Below are positions 26,901 through 29,900 of a DNA stretch of 64,000 nt, in pieces. Position numbers: made by a program. The stretch is from a virus (taxonomy: Duplodnaviria; Heunggongvirae; Uroviricota; Caudoviricetes): positions 1 through 64,000 of IMG/VR virus record IMGVR_UViG_2695420521_000002; one strand, written 5' to 3'. Numbering within the stretch: position 1 is the first letter of the stretch; each line of letters begins with the position of its first letter.

Positions 26901-29900
26901 GCATTACAAGAGTTTGCTGACAAGCATAACGTTGAGGTGCGCAGGGAAGGGGGAAGTAAAGCTCTGCGCATGTACCGTCCGGACGGGAAATGGCGTACGG
27001 TCGTCGATTTCAAAACTAACAGCGTTCCCCAGGGCGTCCGTGACCGGGCATTCGAAGAATGGGAGCAGATCATCATAGATAACGCATTGCTCCTGAATGC
27101 TGATTAATTTATCGGGCAGTTTTATCTGCCCGATAAATTTTTATCGACCACAATTACACTATATTCTTAACTATAAGGTTGGCGTCCTTCAAGGTGCCTA
27201 ATGTTTCAATGTGGTTTTTTATCATTAACCTATTTGAGGCAATTATTGCAGGCCATCGTGTTTCCCAAGCTCTGTAAGCATACCAAGAAACTCCCCAAGT
27301 CCTTTCTTTACTCATATGACTCATCGAGTATTCAACTGCGTCTAAATATGTTTTTTCATACTTAGTATTGCTAACCTCTATGATGCTTCCAAAATATATA
27401 AGCCATTTTGCCAACTGTTCATATTGCTCCCACGCTCCGTCATTCCTTGTTAACTTTCGCTTTTTTTCTATTATCCTTTCGAAAAGAGAAACGACTTTAT
27501 CATCATTCCAATCTAAACCTTCCGATATAATTGATGATATAATTTGATAAAATGAATCCTCTAATTCAAGATATTCATCTTTATAAGTATAAGCCCCCGA
27601 AACAACTTTTCTGATATTTTCACGCGCTCTTTCAATGATGTCTTTAATGAGAGACATCTTATAACTTAATCGACTAAAGAAACAATCTATTTCTGTATTG
27701 TCAATTACCCTTATACCAAAGCAATAGAAGTAATAATCCTTCATGTCTTGACTTACTTTGTTGCGAGATATCAAAAAGATATTAGAGCACAGGGCATTAT
27801 TTTTCGAAAATTTTTTATAGTCATTTATAATTGCTTTAAGATTTGTGTCGCTTAAAGAATACCCTAATATCGCAACTGTATTTTCATGCAGCATCGTACT
27901 AAGTTTTCGTGAAAAATAAGTATCGGAATTTATAAATCTGAAGTAATCATCTGAAGTGACAATCATATTTTTTGGCGAATCAATAGAACCATGAACATGA
28001 TATATTTTCACCTTGGATGGATACTTTGGAATTGGCAGGCCGGGCGTGATAGACTGTACACTTTCATCTCCAACCAAGCATTCAGCCAACTTGTCATAAT
28101 TTGTTGTAATGACACGGAATGAGTTTTTTTGGAAAAAGTCTTTTATATTTGATATGTCTTCTCCAAGTTGAATTGGAGATATGATGTCAACAATTTCATC
28201 ATAAATCGACTTACCCTCAATATTGAGCTTCAAAGATAGTATTTGTGCGGCTTCTTCAAGACTCAGTGCTGGTGGTTTATCATCAGGAAATAACGTGTCT
28301 TCCAACTTTTTGGCATTGTGAACTTTGCTGCAAACTTTTTTTAATAGTTCCTTCCACGTTGGAGCTTCACCGTTCGAGACTGCCTTTGAAAAGCCAGTCC
28401 CGGTAAATAGACAAAGCCTGCTTGTAGCGGCAGCGTATGCTAACTCAACATATTCGCTCATTACTTACTCCATTTACTTATAGTTCTATGGAGAAGTATA
28501 CCCTAATGCATTGACGTTTATAGATAATTTCCTTTTCCAGTTAACTCTCCTTTAGGCACCCGTTTTTGTGCCAGTGTTTGGGTTCCGCGAATTATGTTAA
28601 TCAGAGGGCTTAGTAACGATGGTTCCTGGCGTGCCTCAACTTCTCCAGCCATTGCCCTGATGTAGTCGGCGCTGGCAACGTTGTTGTATTCCGTCGCAAA
28701 GCAACATAGTAACGTCAGAACATGCTCTGTCGTTATTTCGCTCCAGTTGATGTTGAAAAATTCATCGCCTTTTTTATCGTGTTCGGAATCGAAGATGCTT
28801 TGGTGGAGGATGTATTTGCCAGATTCCTTGCGCGGTAACTTGATCGCTTTTTGGCGTTCCAATTCCTTGTAAATCTGCATTGCTTCAATCAGTACCGGTC
28901 TGCCGTTCATGAAGGGATCACGCAACCTTACACGCTGGCCAACTCGACCGGTAATAAAGCTGTTTTCCTCTTCCACCAGCACGATAAAACCTTTTTCCTC
29001 TTTCTCACGCAATTCGCGCAGCAACTGGAGTTCCATATCGCGGCGGCGTTCAGGGTAGCTGATCCGCTCAGCCATTATCAGCTCGTTGTTGATCCATGCA
29101 GCAGTCATTGACGCCGGTTTGCCGACGCTCATCGACACAACACATATTTTCTTATCCATAGCGCCCCCTACAAAAAAGAAAAGCCACCAGCGGCGGCTTA
29201 GCAATACAACTGAAGGTAGCGCCCGGTACTTAGACTGTGCCGTCCATGGAATATTTGAAAAGGGATCCATCCGTACCGGGCGTGTGATGATTCTGACTGA
29301 AGTCACTTGTCAGCTGTCAATCATTTATCATTAAAAATAATATATTTATTAGTGCATGATGTTTGCCATCTCATAGGCGTCAGCCAGTAACTCCATCTCT
29401 GACTTGTTCAGCAGGGTGAATTCTTTCTTGCCTCCAACCACCCCATCGGCATGAACAGGGACCAGCCAGGGGTATTTTGCTCTTACTTCAGCCGGTGCTG
29501 CATGCTGGTGGTGCCATCTACAAAGTGGCAATTGCTTTTTATGACAACCCGGCGCGGTACGACCGGCGATATGGTGCAGAGACACCTCATTAGATATTAC
29601 TCCATGCATATAGCAGGCAATGCAGGGGAGAGCGCCAAGAGCATTGGCGATGCGCCGTTCCTCCGCCGTTGGTGTTCTCCCCTTCAAGCCACGAGATTTT
29701 ATTTTTACCGCGCTTTTCCGCGTTTTGCTGGCTGGTGGGCGCTCTTTCTGTTTAGCGATACGGCGGTCGATAGTATCCCGCATTTTCTGATATTGAGATT
29801 CTCGCCAGACCGGATCAGCCAACTTTTCCCGTTGCCGAGCGATCGCTCGTTCTCTGGCTGCCTTCTGCCACTTGCGGCACTGTTCAATTTTTTGTTCGAT

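Follow-up and report, generated by a model that had tools for sequence, protein, structure and literature searches.

A SIR2-solenoid gene in the mat/lxc interval of a P1-like phage-plasmid: a candidate single-gene anti-phage module

The defence-associated sirtuins DSR1 and DSR2 were reportedly described by Garb et al. in 2022, and their structures include 8wy8 and 8k98 among others. Two accounts (PMC11850899, PMC11087589) present DSR2 as a SIR2 domain joined to an alpha-solenoid that senses tail tube protein. The type I Thoeris protein ThsA combines an N-terminal SIR2 domain with a gcADPR-binding SLOG (STALD) domain in a chain of 476 residues. A further protein, the ~440-residue sole-Sir2 of the CRISPR-supervised immune system (CRISIS), sits in type I-C cas operons between cas3 and cas5c; it hydrolysed nicotinamide adenine dinucleotide (NAD+) in vitro, and a homologue protected Escherichia coli against T2 and T4 (bioRxiv 10.1101/2024.12.27.630466). 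The gene considered here encodes a 435-residue SIR2-solenoid protein in a 64,000-nucleotide stretch of viral DNA (the window: positions 1 to 64,000 of IMG/VR record IMGVR_UViG_2695420521_000002), a P1-like phage-plasmid to which P1 proteins map at 95-100% identity. The chances seem somewhat better than even that this one protein is by itself a complete anti-phage module, in which an NAD+ hydrolase (NADase) is gated by a solenoid sensor, and that its gene is exchangeable cargo between the backbone genes mat and lxc.

The N-terminal part of the protein is a SIR2 domain of the kind found in defence systems. The original prediction of a 435-residue protein with three SIR2_2 motifs in order agrees with the open reading frame (ORF), the Pfam match and the motif positions: GTGFS at residues 21-25, ITTNYD at 118-123 and YHVHGS at 154-159. 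Pfam SIR2_2 (PF13289) matches residues 117-252 (E 1.3e-23; 84 bits vs a cutoff of 24.5). When a profile of 47 homologues is compared with the PDB, its matches are the defence sirtuins ThsA, DSR2 and KomC only, covered over the SIR2 part alone, and N121 and H157 align with N112 and H152 of ThsA. None of the 47 homologues differs at these two positions, the catalytic Asn and His of ThsA and DSR2. The AlphaFold2 model of the full protein (predicted local distance difference test, pLDDT, 85.6) has DSR2, ThsA and KomC as its best Foldseek matches, with E values down to 2e-13 and a TM-score accounted for by the SIR2 domain alone, so that profile and structure searches both confirm the SIR2 fold. The best PADLOC matches are likewise all defence SIR2 families: PDC-S25, ThsA (whose profiles match the SIR2 domain at 1.9e-17), LmuA and Dsr.

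The C-terminal part, some 180 residues that the original prediction had left unassigned, indeed matches no family significantly in Pfam, NCBIfam or PADLOC (residues ~258-435). Structure prediction gives a confident answer: about 175 residues are modelled as an all-helical solenoid (pLDDT 90.6) of about four helical hairpins. A structure search returns no specific solved relative for this solenoid, and Pfam, PADLOC and the predicted structure reveal no SLOG or Macro domain anywhere in the protein. Five tryptophans of the C-terminal domain are invariant in the 47-homologue alignment. A phmmer search with the domain against 1.84 billion representative proteins yielded 77 clusters, whose full-length members measure ~420-480 residues and likewise have this domain at the C-terminus; the remaining clusters are shorter and mostly apparent fragments, and searching 5.8 billion proteins with a profile yielded nothing beyond additional shorter entries. 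The idea that the domain is a module shuffled onto other effectors was dropped, and the domain is taken to be family-specific, because both searches gave only the SIR2 architecture or fragments. It also evolves faster than the SIR2 domain, with a mean identity to the window protein of 46% vs 62% among 109 homologues, and a ratio of nonsynonymous to synonymous substitution rates (dN/dS) of 0.14-0.35 vs 0.05, values that denote purifying selection.

How does this architecture compare with the described systems? Like DSR1 and DSR2, the window protein is a single chain in which an N-terminal SIR2_2 domain with the same catalytic Asn and His precedes an all-helical repeat region, and DSR2 is its top structural match. 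Unlike the DSR proteins, whose 1000-1260 residues take in a middle domain as well as a large solenoid, it makes do with 435 residues and its few hairpins. The NCBIfam models for Dsr1 and Dsr2 (NF041818 and NF041819) align over ~100 residues and score 26.2 and 22.6 bits vs cutoffs of 1400, and the C-terminal domain is related to that of DSR2 neither in sequence nor specifically in structure. The likeness to ThsA that was originally proposed holds for the size of the protein and for its N-terminal SIR2 domain with aligned catalytic residues, but fails for the C-terminal layout, which is all-alpha and not SLOG; unlike thsA, moreover, the gene has no adjacent ThsB/TIR gene, its neighbours being mat and lxc. 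Because the C-terminal domain is an all-alpha solenoid and not SLOG, the closest analogy is, on the best reading, a miniature DSR-like sensor-effector rather than ThsA.

We infer NADase activity, direct sensing of a protein, expression in the lysogen and a defence phenotype, which together would most likely make the gene a stand-alone anti-phage suicide switch. The N-terminal SIR2_2 domain would be an NAD+ glycohydrolase of the ThsA/DSR2 type, and the C-terminal solenoid would both hold it inactive and serve as the sensor. Upon infection by a competing phage, the solenoid would bind a phage-made protein, much as the larger DSR2 solenoid binds the tail-tube protein, and the SIR2 domain would then be released or oligomerised and NAD+ destroyed. 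The infected lysogen would no longer support phage growth (abortive infection), and the clonal plasmid-carrying population would be protected.

The borders of the cassette are sharp. On the minus strand, from right to left, the window carries cra, cre, c8, ref and mat, and P1 homology by BLASTN reaches exactly to the lxc stop codon (window 27107 = P1 9750), then picks up again exactly with the stop codon of mat (window 28518 = P1 3468). The cassette between them (27108-28517, 1410 bp) consists of a hairpin between convergent stop codons, the SIR2 ORF and a 56-bp leader; the corresponding interval of P1 holds res, mod and IS5 in 6281 bp (Table 1). The gene had been predicted at 27154-29159, a span that does contain it and takes in mat as a second gene. 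As predicted, mat lies on one side, but the other side is bordered by the backbone gene lxc and not by cargo. The slot is exactly that of the P1 res-mod genes, as had been proposed, but there is no strict replacement: plasmid pO26_98E11_1 holds mod-res plus a SIR2 allele of 58% protein identity, and the orientation is opposite, the SIR2 gene sharing the mat strand whereas P1 res-mod share the lxc strand. The AT-rich character of the gene is borne out by a GC content of 0.30-0.39 across it vs 0.46-0.51 in the flanks (500-bp windows). In the P1 annotation Mat has a longer form of 250 residues, with a start at window 29270.

Table 1. Coordinates of the SIR2-solenoid cassette and its flanks in the window.
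Feature	Position	Strand	Basis
SIR2-solenoid gene, 435 aa	27154..28461	-	ORF; stop codon 27154-27156
N-terminal SIR2 (SIR2_2) NADase-type domain, residues 1-~257	27691..28461	-	PF13289, PDB profile matches, Foldseek
C-terminal family-specific alpha-solenoid domain, residues ~258-435, proposed sensor/regulatory domain	27157..27690	-	
56-bp leader, mat stop to SIR2 start; part of the cassette, absent from P1	28462..28517	-	
14-bp GC-cored hairpin between convergent lxc and SIR2 stop codons	27106..27148	.	Sequence, RNA fold
mat (maturation control), backbone gene flanking the slot; outside the module	28518..29159	-	95.6% identity to P1 Mat
mat control region: C1 operator Omat and late promoter LPmat	29295..29356	-	Identical to P1
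lxc, backbone gene on the other flank of the slot	26859..27107	+	100% identity to P1 Lxc

Both ends of the cassette carry recognisable signals. The hairpin between lxc and the SIR2 gene folds at -23.1 kcal/mol (z -7.6) on the plus strand, where a U-run trails it, and at -22.2 kcal/mol (z -6.5) on the minus strand, where the U-run is weaker; because U-runs follow on both strands it is a probable shared terminator, although the consensus terminator scan did not list it. The leader has a GGAG Shine-Dalgarno sequence 7 nt before the SIR2 ATG. It can fold with CUUCUCCAU pairing AUGGAGUAAG, which would sequester the Shine-Dalgarno sequence, but this hairpin was rejected since the fold is no better than that of shuffled sequence (z -1.0). 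The leader is near-identical in all P1-borne allele classes, with 1 mismatch even upstream of the 58%-identity allele, and is therefore either a recombination anchor or a constrained control element.

The mat/lxc interval is a multi-cargo hotspot. Among PLSDB plasmid records, the backbone gene mat is found in 692, and the slot cargos in fewer: P1-type res in 108, a DUF2971 gene (PADLOC PDC-S31) in 89, a YaaC-family pair in 84 and the SIR2 gene in 61. The SIR2 gene is accordingly accessory and not a core gene of P1-like elements. Across eight sampled elements the slot contained mod-res, SIR2, the YaaC pair, the DUF2971 gene, icd/ant, or an EAL gene with IS2. The slot of NZ_CP148475.1 (5301-6811 of the extracted locus, L092) holds a YaaC-family protein and a 169-residue protein, with no PADLOC match, and that of NZ_CP135714.1 (L100, 5745-6785) holds a DUF2971 protein matching the PADLOC candidate PDC-S31; the pair and the DUF2971 gene are candidate defence modules of this hotspot. 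Cassettes can also be stacked. In pO26_98E11_1 (NZ_AP027182.1), the plasmid with both type III restriction-modification (R-M) and SIR2 genes, the stop codons of res and SIR2 are separated by a 101-bp duplicate of the lxc 3' end (L090, 5498-5598), which shares 98% identity with window 27007-27107 and is the footprint of a cassette insertion by recombination at the conserved flank. At the opposite flank, plasmids with other cargo match the mat 3' end (window 28518-28650) only from query position 61 or 119-133; the last 20-44 mat codons have therefore been exchanged along with the cassette, and the Mat C-terminus varies by slot type. Like the SIR2 gene, the EcoP1I type III R-M system of P1 occupies this slot, and protection of the lysogen against other phages is presumably a role that they share. 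Unlike EcoP1I, the SIR2 protein would deplete a metabolite and not target DNA; the proteins are unrelated and encoded on opposite strands, and both systems can share one slot.

At least three classes of SIR2 allele are borne by P1-like elements, with 98-99%, ~86% (exemplified by pESA139_3) and 58% (pO26_98E11_1) protein identity. When the window allele is compared with the ~86% class, identity is 93-95% over the SIR2 domain and 75% over the C-terminal domain. Synonymous divergence between alleles ranges from 0.6 to saturated, far above that of the backbone, which is 93-97% identical; the SIR2 alleles are old and have travelled between young backbones. In E. coli the gene occurs in 64 of 5426 complete genomes, and 66 of its 67 copies are on plasmids.

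The wider family extends well beyond these elements. Over its full length the protein matches phrog_7567, a family without an assigned function; copies 98-99.5% identical in P1-like plasmids are annotated only generically as 'SIR2 family protein', PADLOC v2 has no dedicated model for the family, and public databases use generic names only. Homologues of full length (~434 residues, 42-62% identity) are spread over the Gamma-, Beta-, Alpha- and Zetaproteobacteria, and a few are found elsewhere; conservation over the full length across these four classes of Pseudomonadota includes 95 invariant residues. They are overwhelmingly chromosomal and lie in non-phage contexts. An E. coli chromosomal homologue (59% identity) is found at a prophage end, directly after the integrase gene. 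Near-identical DNA was not found in 50,697 phage records, the gene is absent from P1 itself, and phage matches at the protein level are distant SIR2 domains only. A literature search for links between SIR2 and P1-like elements, or to PDC-S25, found nothing relevant.

Does the gene act with a partner? When the 592 flanking ORFs of 63 full-length loci (Pseudomonadota) were compared all against all by BLASTP and clustered, no neighbour was shared beyond closely related species. Because no neighbour is conserved in these loci, the SIR2-solenoid gene is a single-gene module, as had been suggested. Immediate neighbours are heterogeneous, are often defence-related or mobile, and include type I HsdR, AIPR, NERD-UvrD helicase, dGTPase and mad genes as well as transposases, and some homologous loci sit among housekeeping genes. 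In Halomonas daqingensis (L006, 1100-11667), the homologue stands amid HNH, DUF4145, HSDR_N-like and DUF87 (HerA-like) genes and several ORFs without a family, a run that is probably a defence island. The mat gene was considered as a partner and rejected: it is present in the 692 plasmids whatever the slot cargo, and the genes upstream of distant SIR2 homologues bear no relation to it.

The same neighbourhoods set the protein apart from other SIR2 systems. As regards SIR2-HerA (Nezha), there is no HerA/DUF87 gene in the window slot and none recurs in the 63 loci, the single DUF87 gene of the Halomonas locus being 2.6 kb from the homologue, behind three other genes. Unlike Lamassu of the LmuA-SIR2 type, the protein has no adjacent SMC (LmuB) gene, nor is one conserved among the 63 loci, and the LmuA profile aligns only over positions 14-238 of 433. 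PADLOC PDC-S25, its best PADLOC match (6e-27), and phrog_2695 are similarly single-gene SIR2 candidates, of ~520-530 residues, but only the SIR2 core aligns (positions 127-289 of 517 in the PDC-S25 profile) and their N- and C-terminal parts do not. Sole-Sir2, compared by description only, is likewise a single Sir2-like protein of similar size, and may be related to the SIR2-solenoid family; unlike the window protein, its Sir2 part is described as C-terminal and preceded by a novel N-terminal part, and no Cas family is among the top neighbour families of the 63 loci.

Several observations weigh against a sensor-effector that protects the lysogen. The solenoid is small and lacks a specific structural match to the DSR2 sensor, and its faster evolution is not accompanied by positive selection, dN/dS being below 1 everywhere. 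The tally of defence genes among neighbours is a raw count without background normalisation. Deposited P1-like phage genomes have no copy of the gene, which is confined to plasmid records. Scans of the leader turned up neither a sigma-70 match nor a C1 operator, nor the late-promoter box of P1 (AAGTGAYT), and the consensus scan gives no minus-strand promoter for the gene in 28462-29300, which includes the mat 3' end. The C1-repressed Pmat and the late LPmat are the sole recognisable promoters upstream on the SIR2 strand, and the gene may be read from them; transcription of this kind would place SIR2 expression in the lytic cycle and not in lysogens.

A bolder form of the proposal, itself unlikely, has the 175-residue solenoid as the smallest known autonomous phage sensor on a SIR2 NADase, and the three deeply diverged alleles as specificity variants exchanged by recombination at the leader and the lxc 3' end; at its most radical, the gene would be expressed from the mat promoters only and would use NAD chemistry in the lytic cycle for competitor exclusion or counter-defence. 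Could the gene, then, serve the lytic cycle of P1 itself, co-transcribed with mat, and not the protection of lysogens? It might eliminate immune signals derived from NAD, or host defences that depend on NAD, or it might exclude co-infecting competitors late in infection. The arrangement is suggestive: the gene follows mat by 56 bp on the same strand, no terminator separates the two, a promoter belonging to the gene itself was not detected, both Omat and LPmat remain intact (CATGCACTAATAAATATA and AAGTGACTTCAGTCAGAAT, identical to the P1 features), and the neighbouring backbone genes ulx and darB have anti-restriction functions in P1. Such a role is nonetheless improbable. The mostly chromosomal homologues lie beside R-M, AIPR and dGTPase genes, SIR2_2 domains occur only in host-defence systems within the searches made here, loss of NAD+ would harm P1 replication too, and the position of the prophage-borne E. 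coli homologue next to int is a classic one for lysogenic conversion.

An equally small share of belief goes to a Thoeris-like effector without a resident partner, in which the C-terminal domain would bind a small-molecule signal, made in trans by a TIR protein from elsewhere in the host or by other signalling enzymes, and the NADase would thereby be switched on. The ThsA profile matches to the SIR2 domain are in its favour, the five invariant tryptophans could line a ligand pocket, and TIR-domain proteins (PADLOC ThsB at 6e-52, or PDC-S66) are encoded within 1 kb of the homologue in three of the 63 loci, from the genera Vreelandella (L016, 7406-8311), Photobacterium (L026, 7979-8845) and Pseudomonas (L038, 4459-5208). 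These three differ in architecture, strand and distance, and such dissimilarity is what chance neighbours in defence islands would show; their co-location reflects either chance of this kind or an occasional Thoeris-like pairing. A nearby TIR gene is missing from the other 60 loci and, as had been noted originally, from the window, where tblastn with the three TIR proteins gives no match and a whole-window PADLOC scan has no TIR family among the best 25 of 48 families. The absence of SLOG and Macro domains also speaks against a Thoeris-like effector, and alpha-solenoids typically bind proteins.

A regulatory function, in which the protein would modify some target protein of the host or plasmid as an NAD-dependent deacylase or ADP-ribosyltransferase, is very unlikely. 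In other branches the sirtuin fold does support chemistry of this kind, and RefSeq names the product 'SIR2 family NAD-dependent protein deacylase', but this name is unsupported because canonical sirtuins are not matched: PF02146 gives no hit, and PF13289 is the sole Pfam report at E <= 0.1. The nearest solved relatives are all defence NADases, and a patchy, mobile, hotspot distribution is unlike that of a housekeeping regulator. Least credible of all is selfish or decaying cargo without current function, or a plasmid-stabilising toxin, for which the AT-rich foreign composition and many truncated database copies might speak, but the strong purifying selection on the SIR2 domain and the full-length conservation across the four classes argue against it, and the truncated entries are mostly contig-end fragments.

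Other parts of the window also differ from P1. Beyond ulx and lxc, the 6.8-kb P1 anti-restriction gene darB is replaced by ~8.2 kb of cargo (18171-26408), which holds a chaperone-usher fimbrial operon (a PefC/AfrB-type usher, a chaperone and F18 FedE-like subunits), a DsbA-family gene (24082-24723) and an ORF of 315 residues without a family match (25114-26061); ~90% identical blocks are present in P1-like plasmids of Escherichia albertii. The gene for the DarB-packaging helper, ulx (26398-26862), is a pseudogene that has lost 12 N-terminal codons at the cargo junction and has an in-frame stop (GLRG*LLKNP), a decay consistent with the loss of darB. One ORF of the window, probably 13985-15193 (402 residues), matches the PADLOC Cas12f/Cas12u profiles at 1.6e-87 and is most likely a TnpB, brought into the P1 backbone by an insertion of the IS200/IS605 type.

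What the SIR2-solenoid gene offers is no new principle, because the family is already deposited under generic annotation and SIR2 cargo in mobile-element hotspots is to be expected. If it works as proposed, however, it would be a minimal one-gene, NAD-depleting immune protein of less than half the size of DSR2, and its small size would make it an attractive system for learning how a helical-repeat sensor gates a SIR2 NADase. The allele series (98%, 86% and 58% identity, with differences mostly C-terminal) is a ready set for mapping specificity. Were the radical version true, it would amount to a phage-side use of the SIR2_2 domain. The mat/lxc interval itself emerges as a defence hotspot, where at least four common cargos can take one another's place, in phage-plasmids that occur widely in E. 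coli, Salmonella and E. albertii and that also carry resistance and adhesin genes. Its contents are relevant to host range in phage therapy and to how phage-plasmids compete with other phages.

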